The position numbers were made by a program, and so were the translations under genes. Of a stretch of DNA of 64,000 nt, positions 6,904 through 57,873 are shown in pieces. The stretch's first letter is position 1. Each line of letters begins with the position of its first letter. The notes beneath the pieces were generated by a model. That model was not told where the DNA came from. It saw only the letters and a program-made list of their open reading frames with translations, and did no database searches. This DNA comes from Candidatus Vogelbacteria bacterium. Its GTDB lineage: Bacteria > Patescibacteriota > Minisyncoccia > Phycocordibacterales > XYD1-FULL-46-19. The DNA is taken from assembly GCA_903878275.1 (NCBI GenBank), contig CAIRHC010000007.1, forward strand, positions 8,727 through 72,726. Reading direction: 5' to 3'.

Positions 6904-6936
6904 ACAACGAAAAATTAATAATTTAATTAAACAGTT

Positions 6937-7552: not shown

Positions 7553-7605
7553 TCGTTAAGGTTATTAATTTGGGGGACTAGAACGCCAGGATTAAAATCT
7601 TAAAC

Positions 7606-12198: not shown

Positions 12199-12930
12199 AT
12201 GAAAAAATATTTTAATTCTTACTGCCTAATTTTTCCTATTTATTATATTATCTTCATAATCATTGGTGCTTTGGGGTACCTTTTTTTGTTTTCTAGTGGT
12301 GATTCTTTCGGTCAGGGGTTGGTATCAATATTAGGTATCCTGTTTTTCTTTTTCTGGCTTATCATCCCGCTCAATGTTTTTTTTCAATCACCACAGATTT
12401 CGGGTTATCTATCTTACTATCTGGTTGCTTTTTTGGTAAATGTGTTTATTTTATTCTATTTTGGTTTATGGTTAGATTTTTTTAGCCAAAGGAATAATCT
12501 AGAAACAAACAAGAAGGGTAATTATAAAACTAGATTAGTAATTTCTTCTTTTATCGTCATCCTTTTGATAATTAGCGCAGTATTTTCAAACATTTTTGGT
12601 TATGCTTGTGAAATCAATAAGAATTATGATAATTCTAATGACAAAGATGAGTGCTATTCCCAGCTAGGAAGTTCTCGAAAAGATATTTCGCTTTGTAACC
12701 GTATTGTTGAAGGTTCGCTTGATAGCAGAGCTTTTTATCATAAAGGATTGTGCTATGGGAAGATTGCCAAAGTCCGAAATGACGAATCTTTGTGTGGTAC
12801 ACTCAATAATAGTGGAGATCGAGATTCTTGTTACTTAATTTCTGGTTTCAGCAAAAATGATTGTTCTAAGTTGACAAGTCCAGTAGAGAAAAAATACTGC
12901 GAGTCTTCTTCCGCTGGAATTACTAGATAA
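12199..12930 (+). CDS. Hypothetical membrane protein with Cys-rich C-terminal repeats (D.D.CY)
   Basis: Four or more N-terminal TM helices; C-terminal repeated NDKDECY / GDRDSCY / KNDCSK motifs. Confidence 0.45.
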   Translation: MKKYFNSYCLIFPIYYIIFIIIGALGYLFLFSSGDSFGQGLVSILGILFFFFWLIIPLNVFFQSPQISGYLSYYLVAFLVNVFILFYFGLWLDFFSQRNNLETNKKGNYKTRLVISSFIVILLIISAVFSNIFGYACEINKNYDNSNDKDECYSQLGSSRKDISLCNRIVEGSLDSRAFYHKGLCYGKIAKVRNDESLCGTLNNSGDRDSCYLISGFSKNDCSKLTSPVEKKYCESSSAGITR

Positions 12931-12952
12931 AAAAAGTGGTAAAATTAAGAAG

Positions 12953-13477
12953 ATGAAAAAAGAAAACAACCTAGCTTTTATCGATGGGCAAAATTTGCAT
13001 CTTGGCACTAAATTAAACAATTGGGTCGTAGATTTATACAAATTTAGAATTTATTTAAAGGATAAGTATCACGTTACCGAGGCCTATTATTTTCTTGGCT
13101 GTGTCTCCGAAGCTGAACAAGATTTATACAATAACTTACAAAAAGCTGGTTTTATTATCGTTTTTAAAGAGCACATTACAACCTTAAAAGGAACAAAGAA
13201 GGGTAATGTGGATACTGATATTGTTTTTGAAATAATGAAAAATCTTATTGATAACAAAGATTTTGATAAAATTATTCTTGTTTCTTGCGATGGTGATTAT
13301 AAAAAGGTAGTTGATTATTCGATCAGAAAAAATCGGTTTAAAAAGATACTTTTTCCGAACCGGAAATTTGCCTCGTCTTTATATCGACATTTAGAATTGG
13401 CATTTTTTGATAATTTAGATAATCCCGATATTAGAGCAAAGATTGAATATTTACACCAAAAGAAAAGGGCTCCTTAG
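12953..13477 (+). CDS. NYN-domain (LabA-like) putative RNase
   Basis: N-terminal LAFIDGQNL and a central acidic cluster VSCDGDY, typical of the NYN/PIN-like fold; a truncated paralog lies at 33062-33241. Confidence 0.65.
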   Translation: MKKENNLAFIDGQNLHLGTKLNNWVVDLYKFRIYLKDKYHVTEAYYFLGCVSEAEQDLYNNLQKAGFIIVFKEHITTLKGTKKGNVDTDIVFEIMKNLIDNKDFDKIILVSCDGDYKKVVDYSIRKNRFKKILFPNRKFASSLYRHLELAFFDNLDNPDIRAKIEYLHQKKRAP

Positions 13478-13556
13478 GCACTTACACCGTTCGGATCCCT
13501 TTTCGTCTGAATATATTAATATAATATACCCTTTTCTCTTTGTGTCAAGTGGATAA

Positions 13557-21247: not shown

Positions 21248-21640
21248 ATGGAACAAAAATTTGATTTGTGGAATGAAATAAAGAAAAAAATTGACAGCGA
21301 AGACAATCTCACCGAACGATTTCCAAAAGAAGGTGAGGTCTGGATGAGCTCGTTGGGAAAAAATGTCGGTTTTGAACAAAATGGTTCCAATGACAACTTT
21401 TCTCGTCCCGTTTTGATAATAAAAAAGTTTAATAATCAGATGTTCTGGACTATTCCATTGTCTACCAAAAAGAAAGCCTTTGATTTTTACCACAACTATA
21501 CCGATCCTAGCGGAGAGAAGGTGTCAGCAATCTTGGCTCAACTGAAGTTGTCAAGTGTTAAAAGATTAAAAAGAAAAATTTATGATTTACCAAGCCAGCA
21601 ACTCCCAGAAATTAAAGAAAAATTGAAAAAATTTCTCTAA
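21248..21640 (+). CDS. MazF/PemK/EndoA-family endoribonuclease toxin homolog with about 25-aa N-terminal extension; no cognate antitoxin gene
   Basis: GEVWMSSLGKNVGFEQNGSNDNFSRPVLIIKK...IPLSTKK...AQLKLSSVKRLKRKIYDLPSQQLPEIKEKLKKFL aligns with B. subtilis EndoA ([28 protein letters not shown]...ITAQ...EQIRTIDKQRLTDKITHLDDEMMDKVDEAL); paralog at 31212. Confidence 0.65.
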   Translation: MEQKFDLWNEIKKKIDSEDNLTERFPKEGEVWMSSLGKNVGFEQNGSNDNFSRPVLIIKKFNNQMFWTIPLSTKKKAFDFYHNYTDPSGEKVSAILAQLKLSSVKRLKRKIYDLPSQQLPEIKEKLKKFL

Positions 21641-21682
21641 AATTCGAAACCCCGCCAATTGTGGCGGGGTTTCTCGGAGCCT
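21641..21682 (+). terminator. Terminator AAACCCCGCC-AATT-GTGGCGGGGTTTCTCGGAG; the same motif family recurs at 33346-33386
   Basis: Hairpin plus T-run; near-identical framework (AAACCCC...GGGGTTTCTCGGAG) at 33346-33386. Confidence 0.6.
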
Positions 21683-21733
21683 TACGGCACTTTATATTCA
21701 AAGAATATCAATTATAAAGGAAAAGTCAAGTTT

Positions 21734-23291: not shown

Positions 23292-23669
23292 ATGTTCGCT
23301 AAAAAAATTATGGATCAATTAGCTCCTTCGGTTCCATCCGAAAATGGGACAAAAAAAATCACTATTATTAGTGTCGTGGTTATTGTGTTACTTCTGGTCG
23401 TTGCTTTTGTACTTCTTTCAACTGGTGGTAATCAATCAGCTCCGGGTATCACTACTGGTGGTGCTCAAAAGATGACCGATGCCCAGCGTCAAGCGATTAT
23501 GGATTCATTAGCCAAGTCCGCCGCGACCGCGCCAAAAATGACCGACAAAGAACGCACCGCCATTATGGACTCACTGGCCAAGTCCGCTGCAACTGCGCCA
23601 AAAATGACCGACGCCGAACGTCAAGCCATTATGGATTCACTCGCCAAGTCCGCTGCCTCGGCTCAATAA
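23292..23669 (+). CDS. Small N-terminally anchored protein with three tandem 22-aa repeats (KMTD.[QE]R.AIMDSLAKSAA.AP)
   Basis: TM helix ITIISVVVIVLLLVVAFVLL, then three 66-bp tandem repeats (23469-23666) that differ mostly at synonymous positions. Confidence 0.6.
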   Translation: MFAKKIMDQLAPSVPSENGTKKITIISVVVIVLLLVVAFVLLSTGGNQSAPGITTGGAQKMTDAQRQAIMDSLAKSAATAPKMTDKERTAIMDSLAKSAATAPKMTDAERQAIMDSLAKSAASAQ

Positions 23670-23767: not shown

Positions 23768-26700
23768 ATGTCAAAATATCAAAAACTTATCCCAACCCTA
23801 AAAATGCTTCTCTTGGTCGTGGCCTTGCTGGCTAGTAGTACGGTGGCTCTGGCTGACTACTCTGCACCGACAGACTCGCCACCAACCTGTAATCCAAATA
23901 CTCCGGGCTGTTTGGTTCCGATAAATGTTGGGACAAGTTCGGCAAGCTCACAAGAAAAGAAGGGATTGTTGAGTCTTGGTGTTTTGAGTTTGATAAGTGG
24001 TTACGTTGATACAACACTGGAAGCTGCAAAAAATATGGTCGCAACGATTGTTTCTGATACCACCTCTTTGAATATTTTTGGTAGAGGCACTTTTCCTAAT
24101 CGAGTAACAAAGGTTTGGGACAACCTTTGGGTTACTGGCACTGCCTCTTCGACAAATGTCGTAACCACAAATCTCTATGCAACAAGCACGTACGCCACTC
24201 ACTATTATTGTGCCGATGGTGGTACAACTTGTGGAATAGGTGGTACCGCTGGCGTAAAAACAATAACTGGTAATACTGGTATTACCGCATCCTCTCCTGA
24301 TTCGTCTGGTAATGTCAATTTGACAAACACTGGAATCGTCGGAATAGAACCTGGTAATGGTATCGAAGTCTCCTCAAAAGATTCTAACGGTAAAGTGACC
24401 ATAACAAACAAAAATCCGAATGCTGGTGTTTCTCAAATAACTAGCACGGGTGGTACGGTGAAAATTACCCCAACCGATGGTGGGGGGAAAGGGATTGTTA
24501 ATCTTGAGGTTGATCCTACTAAAATCGTTACCGGAGTTTCTGGCTTAAAGAAAAGTGGTAGCATAACCTTGACTGGAACTGAAACTGACGGTGTGTACAC
24601 TGGCGAAGTCACGATCGGAGGCGGAGGTCCCGGCGAATCTGTCTGGGTTCCAAACTATAATGATCCTGATCAACAGGGGCATATTGGTGTTAATTATCCG
24701 GCAGGTGCTGTCGGCATCGGTGAACATAGCCCAAATCACCAACTAGAGTTGGGAACCAATTTTACTGGTTCCACAGCTGCGCAGGACGAGTTGTTCGGCG
24801 ATATGATGGCCTCTTTTCTCGTGCTTAATTATTTTGAGACCAACCCGATAAGTAGTGTTGCTTCGAGCCGTGTAATAAATGCTCTCTATTCTGTCAAAAG
24901 AGCTGGTACAGATGGAAATACTCCACCATATAAACAAACTGATCTATATTTTAACGAAAACAAAGTTGCCACGAATGAAAATATAAATAATATCATTCAG
25001 GAATGTATCAATGCTGGCAGTTGTTCAAGTTTTGGCGACAATCTATGGTCAGTTTCAACCGACGCCAACGGTAAAAAGACAATGGCTCCGAACGGTAATC
25101 CCGATATTATAAGTCTCGGCACTGTAAATACTGGTGAATTAGGTGCTACCGACATTAAAACTATCGGCGGTGGCTTAGGCAATATTACCGCTGGACGTTA
25201 TGTTTATGCCAATCAAGGACTTTACCTTGGAAAACCGGATCCGAGTGTGCTTGGACAAAGCTCTGTCAGTCAGCTTATTGGTGATGAAAGGATTCTAAAG
25301 TGGGAAGATAGTCCGGTTTTGACTTTAAAAAACTATGCTGATTATATTACCAATTTGGGCGATAACTCTTGGATTGTTGGAGATGGTACTATTTCTCTAA
25401 AAACTCCAGCAAATAAAGTTAACATCGACTCAAAAGACATCACTATCGGTAAAATGACAGCTGACAACGTTTCCGATGGCACAGTCACTGTTCTTAGCAA
25501 TCTTGTAACAAAGAATATAGACACACCTAATGATATTACTGCTGGGAACATCAATGCTGTTTACGATGTTAAAGCAAACAGAGTTATAACTGGCCAAGAT
25601 CTTCAACTTGGTCTCGCCAACTCGATCATCCGTCAACAAAAAATTGGTGACACTGACGCTTCAGCTTTGACATTCTTAACTGGCGGACAAGCTGCCGCCA
25701 ACATTTATTCTGGCGGTCTATCTGTCGCCACTCAATACACCGCGGCGTCAATTCCTCCAAACAAAGGTGCTTATATCGAAGGTTCTGTCGGCATCGGCAC
25801 ACAGCCAGCTACCGATATGAAACTCGACGTTGTTGGTAATATCAAAGCCTCGGATAAAGTATTAGCTTCAAATCTATGTACCGTAGATGGGGCAAATTGT
25901 AAATCAACCGGAGATATTATAAACAATTTCGGCGGCACCAACGTCTGGGAGACTTCTTCTTATCCTAATGCTGTAACTGGTCCAAACATCCAAGCTGAAT
26001 ATTCTGATGCTCGAGCTGGAAATACTGGTGTTGTCGCGAAGAATATGAACGCTCTGGGTTCTTCGGGCTTTGGAGCTATTAAGGACTATGATCCCACCAA
26101 GCAGGCACCAGGAGCGCCTTATGTCGGAGATCCTTTCCGAGATTCGATCCGCTTTATGGCTTATGGAAGTAGTATTAGCGAGGGTTTGGATTCGATAAAA
26201 AAGAGCGGTGCGGAAATAATGTCTGGTGTAAATATGACCGGCGGTTTGTCTATTACTGCTGGTGCGCCTGCCGGTGATATTCGTTTCTATGCCGGCGGAC
26301 GTAAAGCTGAAAACAGGATAATGACTCTGACGAAGGCTAATGGTAAACAATATATTCAGGCTCCTTCTGCGACCTTGGGAGTAAAGGATATTACAGCAGA
26401 CTCTGTCGGCATCGGCACAGCTGCTCCCCGTGGCAGTCTAGACATCAACAAAGGTTCAGCAATGTGGTCCAGCTACAACTATGGCAAACAGCTTGTTCTT
26501 GATGCTGGTACCGGACAAAACACCGGTATGGCAATTGTCGGAGACGATGCAAAAAGCAAAAACTGGGGAATTACCGCTGGCTCTGACGGTGAGAGCTTGA
26601 CCATAAGTGCAATGCCTAAATTAGACGATTTTAGTACACCACCCGATGGTTTTATGAGTTTTAATAGAGCAACCGGTGTCTCTTTCAACAAAAATGTCGG

Positions 26701-29700
26701 TGTTAATGGGAATATTCAAGGCATTGGTGTCTTGGCTGATAATGTCACAGCAAATTCTGTACAACTAGCCGGCAATGGGGGTGGCGACGGTCTTACCTCC
26801 GATTCCAATAATAAACTTCTCTGGAATAATACTCCGGTTGGAGGCAATAATACTTTTATTGGTGGTGATAGCTCCTGGGCTTCGACTACTGATTTCTTAT
26901 ATCCAAATAGTGATCAATTCAGTAAAAACGTCGGCATCGGCACCCAATCTCCGTCCGAAAAACTAGAAGTTGCTGGAAATATTAAAGCCACTGGGAATAT
27001 CAGTGCTCAAGAAGGTTATTTCAATAAACTAGCCACATTTGGTGCCGGAGCTGTTACTTTTGGAAAACATGTTGTTAGTAGTATCTTGCAAGTCAACGGT
27101 GGTGTCGATCTGGCTGTTCACACAGGCAACGTCGGCATCGGGTTGCCTAAGATTATGCAGGCTGGAGACTCTCCCGGTAACCCCTCCGCTCCTGGCATAC
27201 CAACCGCTAAGTTAGATGTCGGCGGGGATATCAAGTCAAATTCTCTGATTTTAAATTCAAAAAATAGCGCTACTGACAACAGTGGAGCTCTTGAGGTTGT
27301 AAGGATTGGTGGAGTGCCAACTGTCCCACCTTCAGACGCAGTGACGGTTTCCAGTTGTCAGTCCTGGAGGAATGGTTACCCCACAAACTTTTTTACCGCT
27401 TACGATGATGTACAAGGTTGTAATGCCGCTGTTGATGCTGGCGATTTGGTTTTCCCTCATGAGATCATTCCTGCCTCTGGCGGGACTCCAGCTTCGGGCG
27501 GATCGGTCAGTCTCTATTTCGACGGCAAACCAGTCGGCGACAATGCGTGGACCAAAAACGGTAACGATATCACCAACAGTAATACTGGCAATGTTAATAT
27601 AAATTCAAATAACATAACGATCGGACGAATGAAAAGTGATGGCTATACCCCCGACGGTACAACACTCATCTTGAGTAATCTCGAAACAAAAAATCTTTTT
27701 TCCTATGGAGGTATTTCAAACCTAGGCAATATTACTACTCAAGGCAACGTCGGTATCGTCAATAATATCACTGGATATGTTCCCCGTGGCAGTCTAGACA
27801 TCAACAAAGGTTCAGCAATGTGGTCTGGCTCCAACTACGGCAAACAACTTGTTCTAGATGCTGGTGTCGGACAAAACACCGGTATGGCAATCGTCGGAGA
27901 TAATGGGGCTGGCAAAAACTGGGGAATTACTACCACTGGTAGTGGTGACAACCTGGTTATAAGTGCAATGCCTGGCTTGGAATATAGCGATACTGGTCAT
28001 CAACCTGATAATTTTATGAATTTTAGTAGAACAACCGGTGTATCCTTCAACAAAAATGTCAGTATCACTGGCAATGTAAATGCCAGCGGAAATATCACCG
28101 GAAACGATGTCGCCGCAAATACTCTGAATGTCCCGACAATCACGACGACCAACCTTATCGCTTCTGGTTCAGTCATCTCTCCTGTTGTCGCCTTAACTAA
28201 TAATTCTGCCAACCCCGTGTATAAAAGTCTCACTATGGACAATAGTGGAAAGCTGTTGTTTGGCGGCAAACCAGTCGGCGATAACAATTGGACAAAAGAT
28301 GCCCGGGAAAATATTAGTAACAGTAATACTGGCCTAGTCTCTGTCGGTCCAGTTAAAGATTATCTTTCGAGTTCGAACATTAAATTTGCTGTTAATGGTG
28401 GTAGTATGGTGGTAAGTGATGATCTGTATGTTGGTAGTGGAGGTTCTGACCCGAAGGGTGAGCTTATTTTGCAAGGGAAGAAGGGGATTCAGTTTTTAAA
28501 TTCGCTCGAAATTAGTGATACTGCCGCGCCTAATTCTTTGTACACAAAAAACTCCGGGTCGGACCTATACTACAATGGCCTACAGATAAATACCCCACCG
28601 TCTTGGAATCCAAGTGGCAATAATATCTCATATGCTGATACCGGCAACGTCGGCATCGGCACCAATGCTCCGCTTGGAAAATTAGATATTACTGGTGGAG
28701 CATCTTCTATCCCCCCTTCTTCAGGAGTTGCCCCGGCGACATCGCTTGCTCTTCGTTTGCACGACAACTCTAATGTCGTTTTAGATTTTGGTCTGAACAA
28801 CAGTAACGGTTCGTGGTTGCAAACAGCCAACAAAACAGACTTGAATGCAAACTATCCATTATCATTAAATCCAAACGGTGGAGGCGTCATTATTGGAAAA
28901 AACCCAATAAATGGTACCATCACTGCTGGATTGACATTGGATGTAGCCGGAGCCATAAAAGGTACCGATGTTTTTGCAACTCACTTGAATGTTGCTAATA
29001 ATGATTTTAATCCACTCGAACCAGCTATCAAGGCTGCTTCATATGTCTCTGGTCGATATGGTGGAGGATATGTTATGCGGGATAATACTAATAATTATGC
29101 GGGTATGTGGACAGACAACAACGGAAATACATTGAAGTTGTCCGCTGGCGGGTCGGCAGATAGTGGTAAATTGAATACGACCAACATAATGTCCTTAAAC
29201 TACAATGGAGATGTTGATGCGACAAATTTCTGTATAACCAGAGGTACCAAACGGAAATGTCTTTCTGACCTATTATTCACAAATTCTTCAATAAAGTTGG
29301 ATTCTCTTGGTGTAGATAAGAATACTGTTTCTTTTAAGATATCTTGGGGAAAGGTAGTCGTCTCGGATACTGTTAACTGGCGAGTTGCATACAAAGACAA
29401 CACCGGGGTGGAGAAAGAAAAATACAACATACCAATCACTGAGGCTGCCGGTGAGTACTCTGGAAGTTTTGAAGTTACTGGTGCGACCGGTAACTTTGTG
29501 TTGACAGCGTCTCTTGTTTCAGGTGGGGGTATTGATGATAGTGTTTTTGCACAATTTTATATTACCCCACCACCAACACCTAGTGTTAACATTGTGTATG
29601 CTGCCTCTGAAAAATGCCCTGCACCTATTACAGATCCAAATTGTTTCTTGCCTAAGTTTCGGTTTGACTACGCAAACATTCCTGATCACTATAAAGCGAT

Positions 29701-30898
29701 TGTCAACACTACTGGTCAATGGTTGTTTCCTGCGCCAAAACCAGGCGAGGGTGCAACTCACGGACCAGTCACCGGGGAAGGGATAGACGTTGTTGGCACC
29801 AACGTATTCAATAATGATGGTTTATCTCAACCTACTTACAGTGGCGTAGGTACGAAAGAGATGACGGTTCAAATAGTATCAGAATATGACATGGAAAATG
29901 TTCTCGTGAGTGACACGGTGCAATACAATTCTGACGGTACGATAAATGTCGATAAAGGAAGAATGGTATTTGAAGCTAACGGTATCCCGAAACAAGATGC
30001 TAACGGAAATGTGACTTGGGGCGTAGGTCTCTTTAATGACGGTGATTTTGACTGGAGTAGTGGTTACAAAATTGTTTGGTCTGAAAGCCGCAATCCTACT
30101 CTTTGGTACACTTTGGCCACTCTTGACAATCTATCTCTTACAAAAGGTGCTTCGGCGAGCTTGTATGACTACAGTGCTGGTCAAAGTACTTTCAATCCAT
30201 ACACCTCCCAGGGTCTCGTTGGTGGTCTTAGTTATGACATGAGTTTTAAAATTGTGAACGGTTCTGGGGTGGCAGTGTCACCTGTCGTGAGAGAGAACGT
30301 GACTATTTTAAAGAAAGATGGCGCTTGCGGTCCTAGTAATACTGCTTCAGGAGTTGTGCCAAATCACGTGTATTCAGTAGCTGGCTATAATAATGAAATT
30401 CGAGCAGATTCTGATTCCTGTTCAGTCGGTACTGTGGCGAGCACATTTACTCTCAATCCTGGTGGTGAACCTGGTTGGACTTGTGGCGGCTCTGGTAGTG
30501 GAACAATCAACCCGTCTCCTGACTGTAAGGGTTACTTTGCTCCGACTGCAAAGAGAGCCCCAACATATACTGTCCCATGGAGGCATACTAATAATGGCTA
30601 TTATGTAAATGTATATGATAATCAACAAATCGACCATGTAAATACTGCCACAGGGGGAGGGCTACCTTGTGTAATACGAGCATTATCAGAATTAGGGAGT
30701 GATCAGATATCTTGGATTGCTGCTAGACTTAACGCCTATGGTGCGAATAGCGGCGGGGCGCTAGAGTTAAAAATAGCTGAACCGGCATACGGGATGAGCA
30801 AGGTAACACTGGCATGGCTGTGTATGGGTGTGGACGAGAACTGGTATGAGGTTCCTAATGCTGGGCAGGTTTATAACCCTCCATTGACCACAGATTAG
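23768..30898 (+). CDS. Giant secreted surface protein (2376 aa), Gly/Thr/Asn-rich with recurring (N/S)VGIGT...KLDV motifs and internal ~100-aa duplications
   Basis: Signal peptide MSKYQKLIPTLKMLLLVVALLASSTVALA; at least 7 copies of the (V/I)GIGT motif; a duplicated block PRGSLDINKGSAMWS..NYGKQLVLDAG.GQNTGMAIVGD...NWGIT...ISAMP......F.R.TGVSFNKNV at about 26420-26720 and 27780-28090; Cys-containing C-terminal region; minus-strand ORFs inside it are antisense artefacts. Confidence 0.85.
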   Translation: MSKYQKLIPTLKMLLLVVALLASSTVALADYSAPTDSPPTCNPNTPGCLVPINVGTSSASSQEKKGLLSLGVLSLISGYVDTTLEAAKNMVATIVSDTTSLNIFGRGTFPNRVTKVWDNLWVTGTASSTNVVTTNLYATSTYATHYYCADGGTTCGIGGTAGVKTITGNTGITASSPDSSGNVNLTNTGIVGIEPGNGIEVSSKDSNGKVTITNKNPNAGVSQITSTGGTVKITPTDGGGKGIVNLEVDPTKIVTGVSGLKKSGSITLTGTETDGVYTGEVTIGGGGPGESVWVPNYNDPDQQGHIGVNYPAGAVGIGEHSPNHQLELGTNFTGSTAAQDELFGDMMASFLVLNYFETNPISSVASSRVINALYSVKRAGTDGNTPPYKQTDLYFNENKVATNENINNIIQECINAGSCSSFGDNLWSVSTDANGKKTMAPNGNPDIISLGTVNTGELGATDIKTIGGGLGNITAGRYVYANQGLYLGKPDPSVLGQSSVSQLIGDERILKWEDSPVLTLKNYADYITNLGDNSWIVGDGTISLKTPANKVNIDSKDITIGKMTADNVSDGTVTVLSNLVTKNIDTPNDITAGNINAVYDVKANRVITGQDLQLGLANSIIRQQKIGDTDASALTFLTGGQAAANIYSGGLSVATQYTAASIPPNKGAYIEGSVGIGTQPATDMKLDVVGNIKASDKVLASNLCTVDGANCKSTGDIINNFGGTNVWETSSYPNAVTGPNIQAEYSDARAGNTGVVAKNMNALGSSGFGAIKDYDPTKQAPGAPYVGDPFRDSIRFMAYGSSISEGLDSIKKSGAEIMSGVNMTGGLSITAGAPAGDIRFYAGGRKAENRIMTLTKANGKQYIQAPSATLGVKDITADSVGIGTAAPRGSLDINKGSAMWSSYNYGKQLVLDAGTGQNTGMAIVGDDAKSKNWGITAGSDGESLTISAMPKLDDFSTPPDGFMSFNRATGVSFNKNVGVNGNIQGIGVLADNVTANSVQLAGNGGGDGLTSDSNNKLLWNNTPVGGNNTFIGGDSSWASTTDFLYPNSDQFSKNVGIGTQSPSEKLEVAGNIKATGNISAQEGYFNKLATFGAGAVTFGKHVVSSILQVNGGVDLAVHTGNVGIGLPKIMQAGDSPGNPSAPGIPTAKLDVGGDIKSNSLILNSKNSATDNSGALEVVRIGGVPTVPPSDAVTVSSCQSWRNGYPTNFFTAYDDVQGCNAAVDAGDLVFPHEIIPASGGTPASGGSVSLYFDGKPVGDNAWTKNGNDITNSNTGNVNINSNNITIGRMKSDGYTPDGTTLILSNLETKNLFSYGGISNLGNITTQGNVGIVNNITGYVPRGSLDINKGSAMWSGSNYGKQLVLDAGVGQNTGMAIVGDNGAGKNWGITTTGSGDNLVISAMPGLEYSDTGHQPDNFMNFSRTTGVSFNKNVSITGNVNASGNITGNDVAANTLNVPTITTTNLIASGSVISPVVALTNNSANPVYKSLTMDNSGKLLFGGKPVGDNNWTKDARENISNSNTGLVSVGPVKDYLSSSNIKFAVNGGSMVVSDDLYVGSGGSDPKGELILQGKKGIQFLNSLEISDTAAPNSLYTKNSGSDLYYNGLQINTPPSWNPSGNNISYADTGNVGIGTNAPLGKLDITGGASSIPPSSGVAPATSLALRLHDNSNVVLDFGLNNSNGSWLQTANKTDLNANYPLSLNPNGGGVIIGKNPINGTITAGLTLDVAGAIKGTDVFATHLNVANNDFNPLEPAIKAASYVSGRYGGGYVMRDNTNNYAGMWTDNNGNTLKLSAGGSADSGKLNTTNIMSLNYNGDVDATNFCITRGTKRKCLSDLLFTNSSIKLDSLGVDKNTVSFKISWGKVVVSDTVNWRVAYKDNTGVEKEKYNIPITEAAGEYSGSFEVTGATGNFVLTASLVSGGGIDDSVFAQFYITPPPTPSVNIVYAASEKCPAPITDPNCFLPKFRFDYANIPDHYKAIVNTTGQWLFPAPKPGEGATHGPVTGEGIDVVGTNVFNNDGLSQPTYSGVGTKEMTVQIVSEYDMENVLVSDTVQYNSDGTINVDKGRMVFEANGIPKQDANGNVTWGVGLFNDGDFDWSSGYKIVWSESRNPTLWYTLATLDNLSLTKGASASLYDYSAGQSTFNPYTSQGLVGGLSYDMSFKIVNGSGVAVSPVVRENVTILKKDGACGPSNTASGVVPNHVYSVAGYNNEIRADSDSCSVGTVASTFTLNPGGEPGWTCGGSGSGTINPSPDCKGYFAPTAKRAPTYTVPWRHTNNGYYVNVYDNQQIDHVNTATGGGLPCVIRALSELGSDQISWIAARLNAYGANSGGALELKIAEPAYGMSKVTLAWLCMGVDENWYEVPNAGQVYNPPLTTD

Positions 30899-30934
30899 TA
30901 GCCGGAGGAGGCGAAGCCTTCGCTCTGGGTGCCA

Positions 30935-31150
30935 CAATAGGGGGAGGTCGAACCTCACCTCAAGGTGCCAAATAGGGGGAGGTCGAACCTCACCTCAAGG
31001 TGCCAAATGTGTTGTAATATAATTTGTTAACGAGGCGGGAAAAATGTGTTGTAATTTGCTGACGATAGGATAATTAAAAAAGAAAAAACCACCCCAGGAA
31101 TTTCGCCTAGCAAAATTCCTGGGGTGGTTTAGTTTTCCGGTTTTTGTTTT
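30935..31150 (+). repeat. Cassette-punctuating repeat unit 1 (with 34-nt tandem duplication and terminator hairpin)
   Basis: AATAGGGGGAGGTCGAACCTCACCTCAAGGTGCC occurs twice in tandem, followed by AAATGTGTTGTAAT...GCTGACGATAGGATAAT and then the hairpin CCACCCCAGGAATTT-CGCCTAGCA-AAATTCCTGGGGTGG + TTTAG. Confidence 0.7.
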
Positions 31151-31191
31151 TTCTCTTTTTTTTACAAAAGACTTCGTTTGGAAATAATGTT

Positions 31192-31202
31192 TGTGATATA
31201 AT
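31192..31202 (+). promoter_or_regulatory. Extended -10 promoter (TGTGATATAAT) 9 nt upstream of the ATG, giving a near-leaderless mRNA
   Basis: The same 60-nt promoter segment (TTTTACA[A/G]GAGACTTCGTTTGGAAATAATGTTTGTG[A/C]TATAAT) precedes the NYN fragment, with its -10 at 33044-33054. Confidence 0.5.
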
Positions 31203-31211
31203 CTTCTCAAG

Positions 31212-31601
31212 ATGATAAAAAGATTTTTGGAGTGGCTGGAGTTAAAAGTAAAACTTAATGATTTAGAAAGCGAGCCACCAATCGTTCATGAAAGAGAGCT
31301 TTGGTGGATTAGTTTTGGTGAAAATATTGGTTCGGAAATTGACGGGAAAAGTCAATTGTTTTCTCGTCCCGGTTTAATTCTCAAGAAACTATCCCGTAGT
31401 TTCTATCTTGTTGCTCCGACGACATCTCAAATAAAAACCGGTTCTTGGTATTCAACGATAAAACACAAGGGTAAAGAGATGTCTGTTTGTTTACATCAGG
31501 TCAGAACGGTTGATTGTCGACGTTTATCTAGCTTAATGGGGCAAGTTGACGAAAAAGATTTTACCGTAATCAAAGAGTCATTTTTCAAATTATATCGGTA
31601 A
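31212..31601 (+). CDS. MazF/PemK/EndoA-family toxin homolog (paralog of 21248-21640) with N-terminal extension; no antitoxin
   Basis: RELWWISFGENIGSEIDGKSQLFSRPGLILKK...VAPTTSQ...HQVRTVDCRRLSSLMGQVDEKDFTVIKESF aligns with EndoA (RPVLVIQ...ITAQ...EQIRTIDKQRL...LDDEMMDKVDEAL). Confidence 0.7.
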   Translation: MIKRFLEWLELKVKLNDLESEPPIVHERELWWISFGENIGSEIDGKSQLFSRPGLILKKLSRSFYLVAPTTSQIKTGSWYSTIKHKGKEMSVCLHQVRTVDCRRLSSLMGQVDEKDFTVIKESFFKLYR

Positions 31602-31716
31602 AGTTACTTGAAAAAAATATTCCTCACCTTTTTATGGGTGAGGCCGTGGCTAAATGCCGAATGTATTTTTAGTATAGACCTTATTTAAAAAAAGTCAAAT
31701 TTTACTGTTTTAACTC

Positions 31717-31845
31717 CTCCGAAAGTCGAGGTCGAACCTCATATTCGGGAAAAATGTGTTGTAATTTGTCGATGGTAGGCTAATCAAAAAAGAAAAAACC
31801 ACCCAAGGAATTTCGCTAGACGAAATTCCTTGGGTGGAGTTGTTT
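31717..31845 (+). repeat. Cassette-punctuating repeat unit 2
   Basis: GAGGTCGAACCTCA...AAATGTGTTGTAATTTGTCGATGGTAGGCTAATCAAAAAAGAAAAAA + hairpin CCACCCAAGGAATTTCG-CTAGA-CGAAATTCCTTGGGTGG; the compensatory CCAGG>CAAGG / CCTGG>CTTGG change preserves the stem. Confidence 0.7.
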
Positions 31846-31902
31846 TTTGGTCAGTTTTATCAACTTTATAAACTTACAGTATTTTGACAAACTTTATAAA
31901 GT

Positions 31903-32844
31903 TTGCTAATATCAGTTTTAATGACGATTAAAGAAAAATTACAAATTATCAAACAAACTACCGGTTTAACTCAAACCAAACTGGCAGAGCGCTTAGGCGT
32001 GTCTTTTGTCACCTTTAATAGTTGGTGGACGGGGAAAACCTTGCCTCGTTTGAAAAAGCAGGTTCTTATTGGCGAGTTGTTTCTAACCTTAACTGGTCAG
32101 AAAATTATCCCGACCGAACAACTGCTCGCGAAGAAGCAAGCTCTACAAAAAAAATCAGCTGAACACAAGAGTGTTATTTCTGAAATATTAAATAATCCAG
32201 ATCTTCGAGATAGTTTCCTGTTAAAACTTACTTACAATAGTAATAAAATTGAAGGGAGCACTTTGTCTGAATCAGAGACTGCCGCGATTCTTTTTGATAA
32301 CACCGCTTTACCAGACAAAAGTTTAATCGAACAATTAGAAGCCAAAAATCACCAGACTGCTCTTAATTATCTTTTTGATTATATCGCAAAAAATGATGAG
32401 TTGACTGAAAAATTGGTGTTAAAACTTCACAGTATTTTAATGAATGGCATTCGTGATGATGCTGGGGTTTATCGTAACCATGGCGTCAGAATTCTTGGGG
32501 TTGATTTGCCGACCGCTAATTATTTGAAAGTCCCCGAATTGATTCCCGGTATAATTAGGAGGGCGAATAGTAAATCTAAAGATGTCGTGGCTTTGTCGGC
32601 AGAAATTCATAGTCGGTTTGAACAAATCCACCCTTTTTCTGACGGTAACGGTCGGATCGGACGGATTTTGATGACCGCGATGTTGCTTCGGGCAAACATG
32701 GCGCCAGCGATAGTTAAACAGGAAGACAAACAGTTTTATTATGCTTGTCTTTATGGGGCTCAAGTCAAAGAAAACTATAACCAGTTAGAAGATTTTTTGT
32801 GTGATGCCATAACAAACGGTTTTAAAGTCTTGGAGCGAGATTAA
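31903..32844 (+). CDS. Fic/Doc-family protein (AMPylator) with N-terminal XRE-type HTH
   Basis: Fic motif HPFSDGNGRIGR; N-terminal LTQTKLAERLGVSFVTFNSWWTG helix-turn-helix; likely true start MTIKEK at 31921. Confidence 0.9.
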   Translation: MLISVLMTIKEKLQIIKQTTGLTQTKLAERLGVSFVTFNSWWTGKTLPRLKKQVLIGELFLTLTGQKIIPTEQLLAKKQALQKKSAEHKSVISEILNNPDLRDSFLLKLTYNSNKIEGSTLSESETAAILFDNTALPDKSLIEQLEAKNHQTALNYLFDYIAKNDELTEKLVLKLHSILMNGIRDDAGVYRNHGVRILGVDLPTANYLKVPELIPGIIRRANSKSKDVVALSAEIHSRFEQIHPFSDGNGRIGRILMTAMLLRANMAPAIVKQEDKQFYYACLYGAQVKENYNQLEDFLCDAITNGFKVLERD

Positions 32845-32846
32845 AC

Positions 32847-33000
32847 CGAAAGTCGCCGAAAGTCGAGGTCGAACCTCACCTCAAGGTGCCAAATGTGTTG
32901 TAATTTCCTGACGGTAGGATAATCAAAAACGAAAAAACCACCCCAGGAATTTCGCTTAGCGAAATTCCTGGGGTGGTTTTAGTCCTCTGGTTTTTATAAT
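32847..33000 (+). repeat. Cassette-punctuating repeat unit 3
   Basis: CGAAAGTCGAGGTCGAACCTCACCTCAAGGTGCCAAATGTGTTGTAATTTCCTGACGGTAGGATAATCAAAAACGAAAAAA + hairpin CCACCCCAGGAATTTCGC-TTAG-GCGAAATTCCTGGGGTGG + TTTTAG. Confidence 0.7.
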
Positions 33001-33061
33001 ATTTTTTCTTTTTTTACAGGAGACTTCGTTTGGAAATAATGTTTGTGCTATAATCAGAAAA

Positions 33062-33241
33062 ATGAAGAAAGAAAATAACTATGCCTTTATTGATAGTCAG
33101 AATTTGAATTTGGCAATTAGATATTTAGGGTGGGAATTGGATTTTGCTAAGTTTCGAATTTATCTAAAAGATTGTTTTGGCGTAGATAAAGCCTATCTTT
33201 TTATCGGTTTTGTAAACGACAATCAACCGCTTTATACTTAA
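33062..33241 (+). pseudogene. Truncated N-terminal fragment (59 aa) of an NYN-domain gene, paralogous to 12953-13477
   Basis: Own translation: MKKENNYAFIDSQNLNLAIRYLGWELDFAKFRIYLKDCFGVDKAYLFIGFVNDNQPLYT*. This matches the first ~55 aa of the full-length paralog (MKKENNLAFIDGQNLHLGTKLNNWVVDLYKFRIYLKDKYHVTEAYYFLGCV), then a stop. It is driven by the duplicated extended -10 promoter at 33044-33054. Confidence 0.6.
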
Positions 33242-33345
33242 GAAAAAGAGGCATAACCTAGGGACGAAACCCTTCGGGCAGCCTCTTTATCGTGATAGTT
33301 TAATAATAGCAAATATGGCTGATGTGTCAACGTAAGCTTAGTTAA

Positions 33346-33386
33346 AACATCGAAACCCCACATTGCTGTGGGGTTTCTCGGAGGCC
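33346..33386 (+). terminator. Terminator AAACCCCACATTGCTGTGGGGTTTCTCGGAGGCC, same family as 21641-21682
   Basis: Hairpin + T-run; shares the AAACCCC...GGGGTTTCTCGGAG framework. Confidence 0.5.
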
Positions 33387-33491
33387 GAAGCCATAATACT
33401 TATTATAATATACCACTTATTTTTTTAAGCAAGGGCGGGGGCGGTTTAGTTTCCGGTTTTTCTGATCTTTTCTAGCCACATTTCTTGTTTT

Positions 33492-33920
33492 ATGCTAAAA
33501 TTACAGTATATGGTTATCGATGTGGAAAAAAGAGATGAAATCATTGAATACTGGCGGGAAGGAGCGGGAGAAGCGCTTGAAAACGCTGAATATTTAATGG
33601 AGAAGAAAAGTTTTTCCTATGCTTTATTTTTTGCTCATTTAGCGACAGAAAAAATTCTTAAATCTCTGGTGATTAAGAAAACCAACGACCATGCTCCTCG
33701 GACTCATGATTTACTCTATTTGGTCGGGTTGTCGGGGGTTGATTTATCAAAAAGCCAAGAGAATCTGTTGTTAGAAATTGGTAAATTCAATATTGAAGGT
33801 CGTTATCCAGAAGAAAAACAAGAAGCTTCAAAAAAAATTAACCAAGCAATGGTAGAAAATTATCTAATTAAAATTAAAGAATTATATTTATGGTTATCGT
33901 CGGAGCAGAAAGAAAAATAA
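33492..33920 (+). CDS. HEPN-domain protein (toxin component of a HEPN/MNT module)
   Basis: All-helical; ALFFAHLATEKILKSLVIKK...HDLLYLV resembles HEPN helices; immediately followed by and overlapping an MNT nucleotidyltransferase gene. Confidence 0.6.
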   Translation: MLKLQYMVIDVEKRDEIIEYWREGAGEALENAEYLMEKKSFSYALFFAHLATEKILKSLVIKKTNDHAPRTHDLLYLVGLSGVDLSKSQENLLLEIGKFNIEGRYPEEKQEASKKINQAMVENYLIKIKELYLWLSSEQKEK

Positions 33921-34231
33921 TTAGTAGCGAGGAAATTAAAAAAATCCTGGCTCTTTTTAAAGAAAAGTTGGTGGCAGAAAAAGTGCCTTTTGCGAGCATT
34001 TATCTTTTTGGTTCTTATGCGACAGGCGAGGCTGACCGTGATAGTGATATTGATATTGCGGTGGTGATTTCGCCAAAGGCGAAAATTGACGAGGAGCTCG
34101 TTGACCATTGGCGTTGGTTAGCTAAAGAGATAAATGTTAAGACTGAAGTGCATATTATCAAAACTGAAGATTTTGATAATCGCTATCTATCTTTACCCGC
34201 TTATATTAAAAAAGACGGGATTGTTGTTTAG
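33890..34231 (+). CDS. Minimal nucleotidyltransferase (MNT) antitoxin-type protein
   Basis: GS-x9-DxD polymerase-beta-type motif LFGSYATGEADRDSDIDIAVV; overlaps the HEPN gene by 31 nt. Confidence 0.8.
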   Translation: MVIVGAERKIISSEEIKKILALFKEKLVAEKVPFASIYLFGSYATGEADRDSDIDIAVVISPKAKIDEELVDHWRWLAKEINVKTEVHIIKTEDFDNRYLSLPAYIKKDGIVV

Positions 34232-34232
34232 G

Positions 34233-34345
34233 GTAATATAATTTGCTGACGAGAAAATAATCAAAAACGAAAAAACCACCCCAGGAATTTCGCTTAGCGA
34301 AATTCCTGGGGTGGTTTTAGATTTCTGGTTTTTCTGATTTTTTTC
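34233..34345 (+). repeat. Cassette-punctuating repeat unit 4 (lacks the GAGGTCGAACCTC head)
   Basis: GGTAATATAATTTGCTGACGAGAAAATAATCAAAAACGAAAAAA + hairpin CCACCCCAGGAATTTCGC-TTAG-GCGAAATTCCTGGGGTGG + TTTTAG, directly upstream of pilB. Confidence 0.7.
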
Positions 34346-34386
34346 TTTCTCTTTTTCTGTTGTTCTGTTAAAATTAAATAAGTTTT

Positions 34387-36141
34387 ATGCCTATCGAAGT
34401 TGGACCACTAAAAAAGTTTTTACTTGATGCTCGCTTGATTTCCAAAAGTGATTTGGAAATTGCCGAGCAGGAATCGATCGAGAAAAAAACTCGACTCGAG
34501 GATGTTTTATTGAACAAGGGGCTTTTATCGGAAGACGATATTCGTCAGGTCAAAGCTTATGTTGGCGGTATTCCGTTTGTCGATTTAAAAAACCAAAAAA
34601 TTCCGAAAGATATTTTGTTTATCGTGCCCGAACCACTCGCTCGCAAGCACAACATAATTGCCTACAACAAGACACCGGCTGGTTTGGAGGTGGCGATGCT
34701 TGATCCGCTTGATCTCGAGCACATTGATTTCATCCGCAAAAGTTCTGGTCTGAAAATTTTACCTCGTCTGACCGACACCGAATCAATCAAAAAAACTTTA
34801 CTGCTCTATCAAAAAAGTTTGAAAGCCGAGTTTGGCGATATTATCCAAAAGGAAACTCTGGCGATTAAAAATTTGGCCAACACTAAAAGTGGTGAAGAAG
34901 TGAGTGCAGTTGAGTTACAAAAGCTTGCTGAAGATTTACCGGTTATTCGCATCGTCGATACGGTTTTGTCGCACGCCATTATGCAAAAAGCGTCGGATAT
35001 TCATATCGAGCCATTTGAAAAAGAAGTTTTGATTCGTTATCGGCTTGACGGCGTGCTTTACGACGCAATGGTCTTACCGAAAGAGACGGCTTCCGGCTTG
35101 GTCGCACGCATAAAAGTGCTGACCAATCTTCGTCTCGATGAAAAAAGATTGCCACAAGACGGGCGTTTCAAAATTCAAAACAAGGATCAGAATGTATCTT
35201 TTCGTGTTTCGACTTTGCCGACCAGCTTTGGTGAAAAGATTGTAATGCGTCTTTTGCCTGATGCGACCAGCGATCTGACGCTCGAGAGTATGGGTTTTCA
35301 CGGGACTGATTTGGAAAAAATCCAGGAAGCGCTCAAACAAACGACCGGGATGGTCTTGGTCACTGGTCCGACCGGTTCGGGAAAATCGACCACAGTTTAT
35401 ACGATTTTAAATATTTTAAATACGCCAGGGGTTAATATTTCCACTATTGAAGATCCGATCGAATATCAGATGCCGAGGATTAACCAAACTCAAGTCAAAC
35501 CAGAAATTGGTCTAACCTTTGCTGGCGGTTTGCGTGCCCTCGTCCGCCAAGATCCAGATATTATTATGGTTGGGGAAATTCGCGATCGTGAGACGGCGGG
35601 GCTGGCTATCAATGCCGCTTTGACTGGCCACTTGGTTTTATCGACCTTGCACACCAATTCGGCGGCGGGCACTTTGCCTCGTTTGCTTGATATGGGTGTC
35701 GAGCCATTTTTGGTGACCTCGACCATTAAAATTGTCATTGCTCAAAGACTGGTTCGACGCTTGACCGACGAAAAAGAAGAATACAAATTGACCGAAGCGG
35801 AACTGGCGGACATTGGCAAACACGCTGATTTGACGGCGGTGCTTGCTTTGCTAAAAAAAGAAAGAATTTTAAAAATGACCGACACTTGGCAAGATGTTAG
35901 TTTTTATCGACCGAAAGCTGGCGTTGATGAAAAAGAAGCCTATACTGGTCGGATTTGTATTACGGAAATTTTAACAATGAATCGGGCGTTGCGCGATTTG
36001 ATTACCGAAAACAAAACCGCCGACGAGCTAGAAGAGTTTGCCAAAAAAGCCGGAATGATCTCGATGCTCGAAGATGGTATTTTTAAAGCGGCACAAGGTA
36101 TTACGTCCATTGAAGAAGTTTTTCGAGCGGTAAGTGAATAA
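34387..36141 (+). CDS. pilB: Type IV pilus assembly ATPase PilB (GspE family)
   Basis: Walker A GPTGSGKST; GspE N-domain; His-box region LSTLHTNSAAG. Confidence 0.9.
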   Translation: MPIEVGPLKKFLLDARLISKSDLEIAEQESIEKKTRLEDVLLNKGLLSEDDIRQVKAYVGGIPFVDLKNQKIPKDILFIVPEPLARKHNIIAYNKTPAGLEVAMLDPLDLEHIDFIRKSSGLKILPRLTDTESIKKTLLLYQKSLKAEFGDIIQKETLAIKNLANTKSGEEVSAVELQKLAEDLPVIRIVDTVLSHAIMQKASDIHIEPFEKEVLIRYRLDGVLYDAMVLPKETASGLVARIKVLTNLRLDEKRLPQDGRFKIQNKDQNVSFRVSTLPTSFGEKIVMRLLPDATSDLTLESMGFHGTDLEKIQEALKQTTGMVLVTGPTGSGKSTTVYTILNILNTPGVNISTIEDPIEYQMPRINQTQVKPEIGLTFAGGLRALVRQDPDIIMVGEIRDRETAGLAINAALTGHLVLSTLHTNSAAGTLPRLLDMGVEPFLVTSTIKIVIAQRLVRRLTDEKEEYKLTEAELADIGKHADLTAVLALLKKERILKMTDTWQDVSFYRPKAGVDEKEAYTGRICITEILTMNRALRDLITENKTADELEEFAKKAGMISMLEDGIFKAAQGITSIEEVFRAVSE

Positions 36142-55640: not shown

Positions 55641-55775
55641 AAGTTTTATCAAACACCGGGTGTTGATAGTCTCTGGTGTCGGACATTTTTGTGCTGTGTT
55701 ATCCACCTATTTACCTTGCCAACTTGCCTTGGGGGGGGGTATTATTAGGGGATTAGAAGTTAATCATAAAAATAT

Positions 55776-56589: not shown

Positions 56590-56672
56590 CGGAATAATTG
56601 CGACTAGGGGTTTTTATGTCTTATGTCAAACACCGGGCGTTGATAATTACCCGGGTATTTGGTAGTTTTGGG

Positions 56673-57383: not shown

Positions 57384-57873
57384 ACACCGGGTGTTGATAA
57401 CGTTGTGATTGTTCCCAATAATGTGGTGTGGAGCTTGGATTTTTTGATGCTGGTGATCACTGTGTTACAATAGAAGTATTATAAAATATCGTGAAATTTC
57501 AGATCTTAAAATTTATTTAAAATAATATGCTACAAAATACAACAGAAGAATCATCTGGCGAGTTGGAAAAAGAAGATGCTAAAAATACTGAAGACCTTCC
57601 ATTGGAAGCTTTCGGTCTTGATGAGAAAGAAGCCGCAGATATATCCAAAAATTCTGACGAGGTGGAAGATATGAAAAATTTTCTAAATTAATCAAAAAAG
57701 TATCTAAGCAAATTATTGACTGGGAGGGGAAAATTTCCCTGCGTTTCTGCTACCCGGTTGACTTATCTAGTCATTTTGTTATGATAATTACTACGTTCGT
57801 TGCCTGCATTTTGTGGGTGTCGCGTTTTGTTTTTTAATTAAAAATTATTACTAGTTAGCTAATTTTAAATAAT

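Follow-up and report, generated by a model that had tools for sequence, protein, structure and literature searches.

A repeat-punctuated array of small toxin and defence-type cassettes upstream of pilB in a Candidatus Vogelbacteria genome

We analysed a 64,000-nt stretch of a Candidatus Vogelbacteria genome (hereafter the window), and in it the 3.4-kb segment that runs from the stop of a giant open reading frame (ORF; 30898) to pilB (34387). The segment holds, in order, a solo MazF-like gene, a helix-turn-helix (HTH)-Fic gene, a 59-codon remnant of an NYN gene and a HEPN-MNT pair, punctuated by copies of a hairpin-bearing unit, and it is an insertion relative to related genomes. The explanation that we favour, and to which we would assign about half of our belief, is a lineage-specific accretion hotspot, in which a native bidirectional terminator region has been re-copied and shuffled by homologous recombination, its copies insulating near-leaderless cassettes. 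An earlier note on this DNA had proposed a modular hotspot for toxin and defence genes, and this description holds well, with cassettes stacked at one spot where relatives have a plain terminator-promoter spacer. We found no description of such arrays in the literature on candidate phyla radiation (CPR) bacteria with toxin-antitoxin hotspots, integrons or leaderless mRNAs.

Anatomy of the array and its place in related genomes

The array and its two anchor genes comprise the following features, with the basis of each assignment in brackets.

23768-30898, plus strand: giant ORF of 2376 aa, the upstream anchor (stop codon 30896-30898)
30907-31013, plus strand: three tandem ~35-nt heads, the first degenerate, immediately 3' of the giant-gene stop (Tandem Repeats Finder, TRF, and direct repeats)
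30979-31166, unstranded: unit 1, with head, partly duplicated AT block, hairpin at 31089-31127 and T-rich tail (repeats, terminator scoring)
31161-31211, plus strand: promoter block in common with the NYN remnant, with extended -10 TGTGATATAAT at 31192-31202, 9 nt before the MazF-like ATG
31212-31601, plus strand: solo MazF/PemK-like gene, type 1, 129 aa (PF02452, E=6e-9)
31607-31698, minus strand: type-1 module, with promoter TTGACT-16-TATACT (31698 to 31671) and predicted RNA from 31664 to 31607 (promoter and terminator scoring, folding, covariance model)
31719-31876, unstranded: unit 2, the most diverged copy, with truncated head and hairpin at 31799-31837 (repeats, terminator scoring)
31921-32844, plus strand: HTH-Fic gene (Fic E=6.5e-19 and HTH; PADLOC PDC-S04 and SoFic)
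32846-33018, unstranded: unit 3, with CCGAAAGTCG twice, head, AT block, perfect hairpin at 32938-32976 and T-rich tail (repeats, folding)
33013-33241, plus strand: NYN remnant of 59 codons (33062-33241) with the second copy of the promoter block (protein comparison)
33243-33330, minus strand: 3' module of the NYN cassette, TTGACA-16-TG-TATTAT (33330 to 33303), hairpin and U-run (11/12 promoter positions; fold z = -3.3)
33345-33425, minus strand: orphan type-2 module, with small UUCG hairpin, UCCGAGA and 11-bp hairpin, and no toxin gene beside it (scoring, folding)
33431-33475, unstranded: partial unit x, the 3' part only (GGGGCGGTTTAGTTTCCGGTTTTTCTGAT), closest to unit 4 (direct repeats)
33492-34231, plus strand: overlapping pair of HEPN (33492-33920, likely start ATG 33510) and MNT (33890-34231) genes (PF05168, PF01909)
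34232-34352, unstranded: unit 4, with no head, perfect hairpin at 34276-34314 and T-rich tail (repeats)
34387-36141, plus strand: pilB, the conserved downstream anchor (T2SSE E=6.6e-125; synteny with L151-L154)

The closest PilB relatives carry the names Candidatus Vogelbacteria or Paceibacterota. At four loci (L151-L154), whose PilB is 66-70% identical to that of the window, the gene order on the pilB side is kept (pilB-pilC-...-TIM-PGK), and it is by synteny with these loci alone that the pilus-to-recJ genes at 36-47 kb of the window were assigned. The spacer before pilB is there made up of a simple terminator of unrelated sequence, T-rich DNA and a promoter, with no toxin gene and nothing like the unit. 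The 3.4-kb segment is thus an insertion relative to these relatives. Upstream of pilB, L152 has NusA, a small ORF and a large surface-protein gene, and by gene-order comparison the giant ORF of the window occupies the position of the last. The giant ORF itself gave no match in a Pfam profile scan, which covered about 46 ORFs of the window, and nothing scored when the last 500 aa of its product were used as a query for the orthologous locus in the closest relative.

The cassette genes had been named in the earlier note as MazF-like, Fic with HTH, NYN, HEPN and MNT, and these identities hold, by Pfam for PemK/MazF, Fic with HTH, HEPN and MNT and by protein comparison for the 59-codon ORF. The MazF-like family is large (~1,350 clusters at 50% identity, E<=1e-10), and its solo members lie mostly on short contigs, many of them 1-2 kb long. 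Adjacent genes for a protein toxin and antitoxin, as in type II/VII systems, are present in the HEPN-MNT pair, the MNT gene matching PADLOC PDC-S09 and, below the NCBI cut-off (45 vs 60 bits), an MntA antitoxin model; PDC-S09, like PDC-S04 and SoFic, is a PADLOC candidate defence family. No antitoxin ORF stands 5' of the MazF-like gene in the ORF list, and no partner antitoxin ORF was found for the MazF-like, PemK-like type-2 or NYN genes. The Fic ORF opens at TTG 31903, although the likelier start is ATG 31921, 9 nt 3' of TGCTAATAT as read from the sequence, with a predicted promoter of TTGACA-17-TAATAT.

The 59-codon ORF has no Pfam match of its own, but over 56 aa its product shares 71% identity with the N-terminal part of a 170-aa L169 protein, which precomputed Pfam annotation assigns to NYN (PF01936), and it is 56% identical to the intact NYN protein of the window (12953-13477), for which our scan returned PF01936. 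That the gene ends after 59 codons, as had been claimed, is correct. Foreign sequence as the cause was rejected, since the DNA 3' of codon 59 has, by eye, a likeness to both the C-terminal codons of the intact NYN gene and its 3' flank (12953-13550), and the remnant therefore looks like the product of an internal deletion.

The punctuating unit

Direct-repeat comparison places a ~122-nt core at 31042-31163, 31752-31873, 32891-33012 and 34229-34350. The four copies are 71-85% identical in pairs over ~125 nt, the full unit extends to ~125-170 nt, and every copy lies in the same orientation at a cassette boundary. The picture of a conserved ~130-nt unit between all genes needs one amendment, in that the boundary between the NYN remnant and the HEPN gene has just the ~40-nt segment 3' of the hairpin (partial unit x). 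At the centre of the unit is an 18-20-bp palindrome, CCACCCCAGGAATTTCGC-loop-GCGAAATTCCTGGGGTGG, with an A-run before and a T-run after. Allowing up to three mismatches, the arm CCACCCCAGGAATTTCGC matches eight times in the window, always inside the four units, against 0.05 matches expected by chance, and the head GAGGTCGAACCTCA occurs four times, again restricted to the array. The tandem duplication of the head in unit 1, noticed earlier, is confirmed as a repeat of period 35 and 2.3 copies after the giant gene (30928-31008, TRF). The search for further copies that had been advised found none outside the array, its reach being the 64-kb window rather than the genome.

The hairpin, previously described as a perfect terminator, is perfect in units 3 and 4 only. 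Unit 1 has a single C.A mismatch, which is G.U on the minus strand, where the hairpin scores as a 20-pair terminator; in unit 2 the stem is shorter and the loop differs. The paired compensatory change reported for unit 2 (C>A / G>T) is present and preserves the stem and, together with the G.U pair of unit 1, indicates that the stem is under selection. On the minus strand 4/4 hairpins score as terminators (17-20 pairs, T-run >=6), with a better U-run than on the plus strand, where those of units 2 and 4 score as well. The fold z is about -6 and the stem is uninterrupted on both strands, so that, with an A-run upstream and a T-run downstream of the stem-loop, the unit has the makeup of a predicted intrinsic bidirectional terminator. 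Rfam holds no family that reaches its gathering score in the array, and an E-value scan gave only hairpin-driven, sub-threshold matches.

Copies on either side of one cassette resemble each other in private features. Units 2 and 3, around the Fic gene, have a CCGAAAGTCG extension in common, and partial unit x and unit 4, around the HEPN-MNT pair, have TTTTTCTGAT. Unit 4 begins immediately after the MNT stop and is followed by the pilB promoter TGTTAAAAT (34366-34374). These private features fit the re-copying of a native spacer. They also bear on a distinctly unlikely alternative, in which the unit is an intergenic repeat scattered through the whole genome, a terminator resembling a miniature inverted-repeat transposable element (MITE), repetitive extragenic palindrome (REP) or bacterial interspersed mosaic element (BIME), that is clustered here by chance among toxin genes that arrived independently. 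A compact element centred on a palindrome, with copies 71-85% identical as in an old repeat family, would suit such a repeat, and the 64 kb searched are a small part of the genome. However, four and a half copies fall within 3.4 kb and none elsewhere in the window, all in one orientation and each at a cassette boundary, and neither terminal inverted repeats nor target-site duplications were seen at the units.

The tandem arrangement might also have been made by the assembler, chaining strain variants that each have a different cassette at this place. To judge by the names of its closest PilB relatives, the source appears to be an uncultured Vogelbacteria/Paceibacterota lineage, and homologous loci do often break assemblies: many MazF-like contigs are 1-2 kb long, and contig L150 starts inside pilB. 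The units differ by 15-29%, however, and so are not collapsible repeats; a comparable architecture (L169-L178, see below) was assembled independently in several samples; and the longest contig listed for the cluster with the PilB of the window measures 149,994 nt. We regard an assembly artefact as extremely improbable.

A comparison with sedentary integrons had also been drawn. Vibrio-type chromosomal integrons have highly similar attC sites of ~120 nt and toxin-antitoxin cassettes with their own promoters. The array is like them in having one conserved hairpin repeat of about this length per cassette, and in its mostly single-gene cassettes in one orientation, many of toxin-antitoxin or defence type and some with their own promoters; strain-variable cassettes, a further likeness, are seen on our side only in the analogous L169/L170 arrays. 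The units had been thought far more conserved than attC sites, but conservation of this degree is nothing out of the ordinary, as the Vibrio VCR repeats are about equally conserved. Against these likenesses stand several differences. First, a regular-expression search found no RYYYAAC or GTTRRRY core on either strand of any unit. Second, folding of both strands for attC-like extrahelical bases found none in the stem, which A and T runs flank in the manner of a terminator. Third, the left junctions are imprecise, with a full head, a truncated head, a duplicated CCGAAAGTCG, no head or the 3' part only. Fourth, every cassette has a predicted extended -10 promoter of its own, 7-9 nt 5' of the ATG, and the window has no intI, attI or common Pc promoter; in agreement with the earlier report of no integrase, no tyrosine or serine recombinase (Phage_integrase) occurs among the ORFs scanned. 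Lastly, the repeat appears to be copied from the local spacer, and homologous cassettes in other lineages use other, locally derived repeats. The integron-like reading keeps its one hairpin repeat per cassette and its wealth of toxin-antitoxin genes, but cores, junctions, promoters and the lack of a recombinase among the ORFs scanned all speak against it. By these sequence features the array is not an integron, and we consider it very unlikely that the units are attC-type sites, one per cassette, of an integron-like site-specific system with its recombinase encoded outside the window.

Near-leaderless promoters and convergent small-RNA modules

The MazF-like gene and the NYN remnant were said to carry an identical 60-nt promoter. 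Identity is complete over a core of 27 nt, which in the window is found at 31169 and 33021 only, but falls to 84% over the 63 nt of the promoter blocks. As read from the sequence, and as claimed, 9 nt separate the extended -10 (TGnTATAAT) from the ATG in the MazF-like gene and 7 nt in the NYN remnant, and the likely HEPN start (ATG 33510) and the Fic ATG (31921) each follow an extended -10 by 8-9 nt. The solo NYN gene (12953) has its extended -10, TGGTAAAAT, 7 nt before the ATG. More generally, TGnTAnAAT occurs about 6-12 nt before the ATG at Fic, HEPN, pilB, the solo NYN gene and the Y1-like gene described below, and in the homologous cassettes of L155 and L169 the distance is likewise 7-12 nt. 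The sites lie at 34366-34389 for pilB, 33493-33512 for HEPN, 31903-31923 for Fic and 57350-57372 on the minus strand for the Y1-like gene. The idea of leaderless promoters therefore extends, as a predicted near-leaderless layout, across the cassettes, and since pilB and the Y1-like gene are among its bearers, leaderless or near-leaderless mRNAs may be the norm of the organism and not a speciality of the cassettes.

Small transcription units are predicted to converge on the 3' ends of the solo toxin genes, in the array and at further loci.

12930-13550, plus strand: solo intact NYN cassette outside the array, gene 12953-13477, 174 aa (PF01936)
21248-21729, plus strand: solo PemK-like type-2 cassette outside the array, gene 21248-21640 and convergent 3' module (promoter 21729 to 21702)
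21645-21729, minus strand: type-2 module of this PemK-like gene, with small hairpin, UCCGAGA and long hairpin
L155:7391-7480, L158:7391-7470, L159:2670-2750 and L169:3391-3470: type-1 module, one per type-1 MazF-like gene
L169:4142-4230 and L158:7918-8000: type-2 module, with PemK-like type-2 genes

The type-1 module consists of a minus-strand promoter (TTGACa, 16-17 nt, -10), 6-7 nt, ACAUUCGGCA, two hairpins, the second of which adjoins the toxin stop codon, and a U-rich tail. In the window the predicted RNA starts at ACAUUCGGC (31664) and comprises ACAUUCGGCA, a small hairpin, a hairpin and a U-run. The module is conserved in five lineages, the MazF-like proteins of which are 62-72% identical, and the non-Watson-Crick positions of its stem are C.A on the plus and G.U on the minus strand. 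Three pairs of the helix have changed on both sides, and 7/500 shuffles reach the observed covariation score in what is a small sample. No Rfam family corresponds to the module. A covariance model built on it has a single match in the window (61.3 bits). The notion that the head and AT block of the unit are themselves a copy of the type-1 small-RNA gene was rejected, as the model finds only 31607-31664.

Type-2 modules have UUCG or GUAA tetraloops on the minus strand, and the PemK-like type-2 genes of the window and L169 are 46% identical. The AAACCCC...GGGGTTTCTCGGAG element, earlier described as a second terminator family tying the two flanks of the giant gene together, does occur at 21.65 and 33.35 kb; however, it is the 3' module of PemK-like type-2 cassettes and no link between the flanks. 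NYN genes carry a third kind of module, distinct from both, and a minus-strand TTGACA-16-TATTAT lies downstream of the solo NYN gene (12953-13477). That gene, a paralogue of the truncated one in the array, has a 243-aa ORF on one side and the RNase Y gene on the other.

The convergent modules of the MazF-like, PemK-like type-2 and NYN cassettes are likely candidate RNA antitoxins. They resemble type I toxin-antitoxin loci in that the toxin gene has no protein antitoxin and, as where a convergent antisense RNA is used, in that a small convergent unit lies just downstream with its hairpin end at the toxin stop; TxpA/RatA and BsrG/SR4 of B. subtilis are type I loci with a convergent antisense RNA at the 3' end of the toxin gene. 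Unlike type I loci, the cassettes have no small hydrophobic peptide toxin, the toxins being RNase-fold proteins of 129-174 aa with PemK/MazF or NYN domains and not small membrane peptides, and the predicted type-1 RNA abuts the coding sequence without overlap. A type III (ToxIN-like) arrangement, suggested by 2.3-3 tandem 35-nt heads followed by a terminator and the MazF-like gene, was rejected: the head is found before the Fic gene and the NYN remnant too, and the MazF-like cassettes of L155, L158, L159 and L169 have no upstream repeats.

Distant MazF-like homologues on plasmids of Campylobacter, Helicobacter and Nitratiruptor have a similar hairpin directly 3' of the stop codon, and one homologue, from a conjugative C. 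jejuni plasmid of about the size of pVir, has a convergent promoter too. Two reports describe CjrA as an antisense RNA and validated type I antitoxin on C. jejuni pVir, with CjpT as its toxin (PMC10470494, PMC7826846). The Campylobacterota homologues may be linked to this system, if CjpT is a PemK/MazF homologue. Solo MazF-like homologues, 32-37% identical, lie on L182 (C. jejuni plasmid pCj2), L184 (a Nitratiruptor plasmid) and L185 (an H. suis plasmid), and CJIE4 prophages carry solo homologues as well. The hairpin after the stop codon is of the CCCCGC...GCGGGG type in these Campylobacterota.

Similar arrays elsewhere and the growth of the hotspot

Homologous cassettes in other genomes have no copy of the unit of the window and are flanked by different local repeats. 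Downstream of groEL, the L169-L178 arrays have a MazF-like and a PemK-like type-2 gene, after which come two NYN genes in L169 and a 23S_rRNA_IVP gene in L170, all separated by repeats. In L169 and L170 the repeats, which stand before the MazF-like, PemK-like type-2 and NYN genes, comprise the promoter and first ~57 codons of a downstream LamG gene together with an IVP remnant. L169 shows a tandem duplication of the unit with NYN (period 1039), the 300-nt repeat core being 100% identical, and L169, L170 and L172 have flanks 98.8-99.7% identical and differ in cassette content, with breakpoints inside the units. Recombination between repeat copies thus visibly reshapes arrays of this type. In L155, a 549-nt MazF-like cassette lies between 63-nt direct repeats (6893-6955 and 7505-7567; 87% identical) of the rplT 3' end, which begin exactly at the rplT stop codon, and the cassette looks like an insertion with replacement or duplication of a gene end. 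L158 has a promoter-region repeat three times, before each of two MazF-like cassettes and before the next gene. Because of these differing flanks, the punctuating repeat is, on comparison of the loci, lineage-specific and target-derived, and does not travel with the cassette. Flanking target repeats are not a constant of solo cassettes, a candidate rule that was rejected as none were found at 12.9 kb, at 21.2 kb or in L159.

A 23-base two-arm hairpin pattern had no true copy in Joint Genome Institute (JGI) metagenome contigs, where one unrelated terminator matched. In IMG/VR, scans aimed at the hairpin and head of the unit, looser and partial patterns among them, at the promoter block, at the type-1 RNA motif and at MazF-like relatives yielded chance matches or none. 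In species-representative genomes, CCACCCNAGGAATTTNG had no match similar to the locus among the matches listed.

We postulate that the ancestral state was that of related genomes, in which a single intrinsic terminator and T-rich DNA lie between a large surface-protein gene and the pilB promoter. Into this spacer would have come, one by one, a MazF-like toxin gene and its convergent small RNA, the HTH-Fic gene, an NYN gene (since internally deleted) and its 3' module, a PemK-like type-2 cassette reduced to its 3' RNA module, and the HEPN-MNT pair. By analogy with the locally copied repeats of other Parcubacteria, the unit would be the native spacer itself, that is the 3' flank of the giant gene, the AT block and the 18-20-bp hairpin between its A-run and T-run, re-copied each time a cassette was added. 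Its copies would then serve as substrates of homologous recombination, by unequal crossover or by excision of a circle and re-entry through a single crossover, and cassettes could be stacked, duplicated, deleted and exchanged. Each copy is probably a bidirectional terminator, as predicted, shielding the giant gene and pilB from read-through, and between unit terminators and an extended -10 promoter 7-9 nt from the ATG each cassette would form a separate transcription unit.

Several observations weigh against an accretion hotspot of this kind. The unit copies differ by 15-29%, which is much for duplicates made in place, so they would have to be old or imported with cassettes from diverged strains. 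Homologous recombination alone does not explain the first duplication of the target, and flanking repeats are missing from the solo cassettes of L159 and of the window at 12.9 and 21.2 kb. The contig of the nearest relative (PilB 89% identical) begins within pilB, and the comparison is with more distant relatives. The searches covered the 64-kb window, and unit copies or an associated recombinase may lie elsewhere in the genome; the loose pattern CCACCCNAGGAATTTNG gave at least 119 single chance matches in species-representative genomes, by which absence of the unit there is not established. The terminator and promoter activities, too, are predictions from sequence.

A rival reading turns on a trans-acting enzyme, for which the window encodes one candidate.

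56673-57383, minus strand: Y1_Tnp/RAYT-like gene with a near-leaderless promoter (37 bits, Pfam; 45 bits, NCBIfam, cut-off 80)

A Y1 transposase of the HUH type, related to IS200 or to the REP-associated tyrosine transposases (RAYT), might move hairpin-bounded cassettes as single strands, the unit hairpin acting as a REP-like end. The Y1-like gene is the sole mobility gene among the window ORFs scanned. It lies between fusA and tuf (55647-57399) in a second, different repeat-punctuated mini-array, where a 22-nt imperfect hairpin (TATCAACRCCCGGTGTTTGAYA, minus strand), present three times, brackets it and a 309-aa unannotated ORF. A similar hairpin (TGTCAACCCCCGGTGTGGATAA) precedes the first L158 MazF-like cassette, in more diverged form also the second cassette and the next gene, and two Y1_Tnp-like genes stand at most 7 kb from the L170 array on its contig. 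In REP/RAYT and IS200/IS605 systems, too, hairpin repeats punctuate small cassettes. However, the 22-nt hairpin has no copy in the toxin array, and the unit hairpin differs from it in sequence, is terminator-like and sits within a conserved block that exceeds a transposon end by far. In L169/L170 the repeats are plain copies of a coding 5' region, IS200/IS605-type insertion is not known to make long target duplications, and the model matches are weak. We therefore hold a role of this transposase in the array to be unlikely.

The accretion hotspot that we favour is a further form of a known theme, the growth of defence and toxin-antitoxin islands by tandem accretion at integration hotspots. As in such islands, successive insertions lie at one site between core genes, a target repeat flanks each insertion, and cassettes would be gained and lost by recombination between the repeats. 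The array differs from them in its cassettes of only 0.5-1 kb without an integrase, in its long (60 to >300 nt) and diverged repeats, and in having no tRNA or other known att site. It comes, moreover, from a phylum in which such accretion dynamics are little described.

Other observations were made at these loci. A small ORF 5' of the giant gene (23292-23669) encodes three near-identical ~20-aa repeats (KMTD.ER.AIMDSLAKSAA), and L152 has a small ORF at the corresponding place. A 23S_rRNA_IVP gene is wedged between pilB and pilC in L152 (11705-12079), and a PDDEXK_3 gene between groES and groEL in L169 (412-837), which suggests that insertion of single genes into operon spacers is common in these genomes. 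L179-L181 also have a strain-variable array downstream of groEL, many contigs ending right after the first cassette.

CPR genomes are tiny and have few recognised mobile elements, so that their acquisition and turnover of defence and toxin genes are poorly understood. The pattern that recurs here is one of minute, self-sufficient toxin cassettes that accumulate at fixed points between core genes, with copies of local sequence separating them, and that vary between near-identical strains. As a tentative and more far-reaching possibility, CPR bacteria, or Parcubacteria, may have an undescribed cassette system in which a promoter, a near-leaderless toxin ORF and a convergent RNA antitoxin (the MazF-like, PemK-like type-2 and NYN modules) are taken up at arbitrary sites, between genes or at gene ends, while tens to hundreds of nt of the target are duplicated, and are then stacked, swapped or lost through the duplicates. 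In function this would be an integron that lacks attC and IntI, and natural transformation or a trans-acting HUH enzyme might feed it. The repeats account for the fragmentation of metagenome assemblies at such loci, and the convergent RNA modules offer a testable account of many orphan MazF-like and NYN toxins, in which the antitoxin would be an RNA. If the recombination route were established, the array would represent a mode of gene capture without a dedicated integrase.

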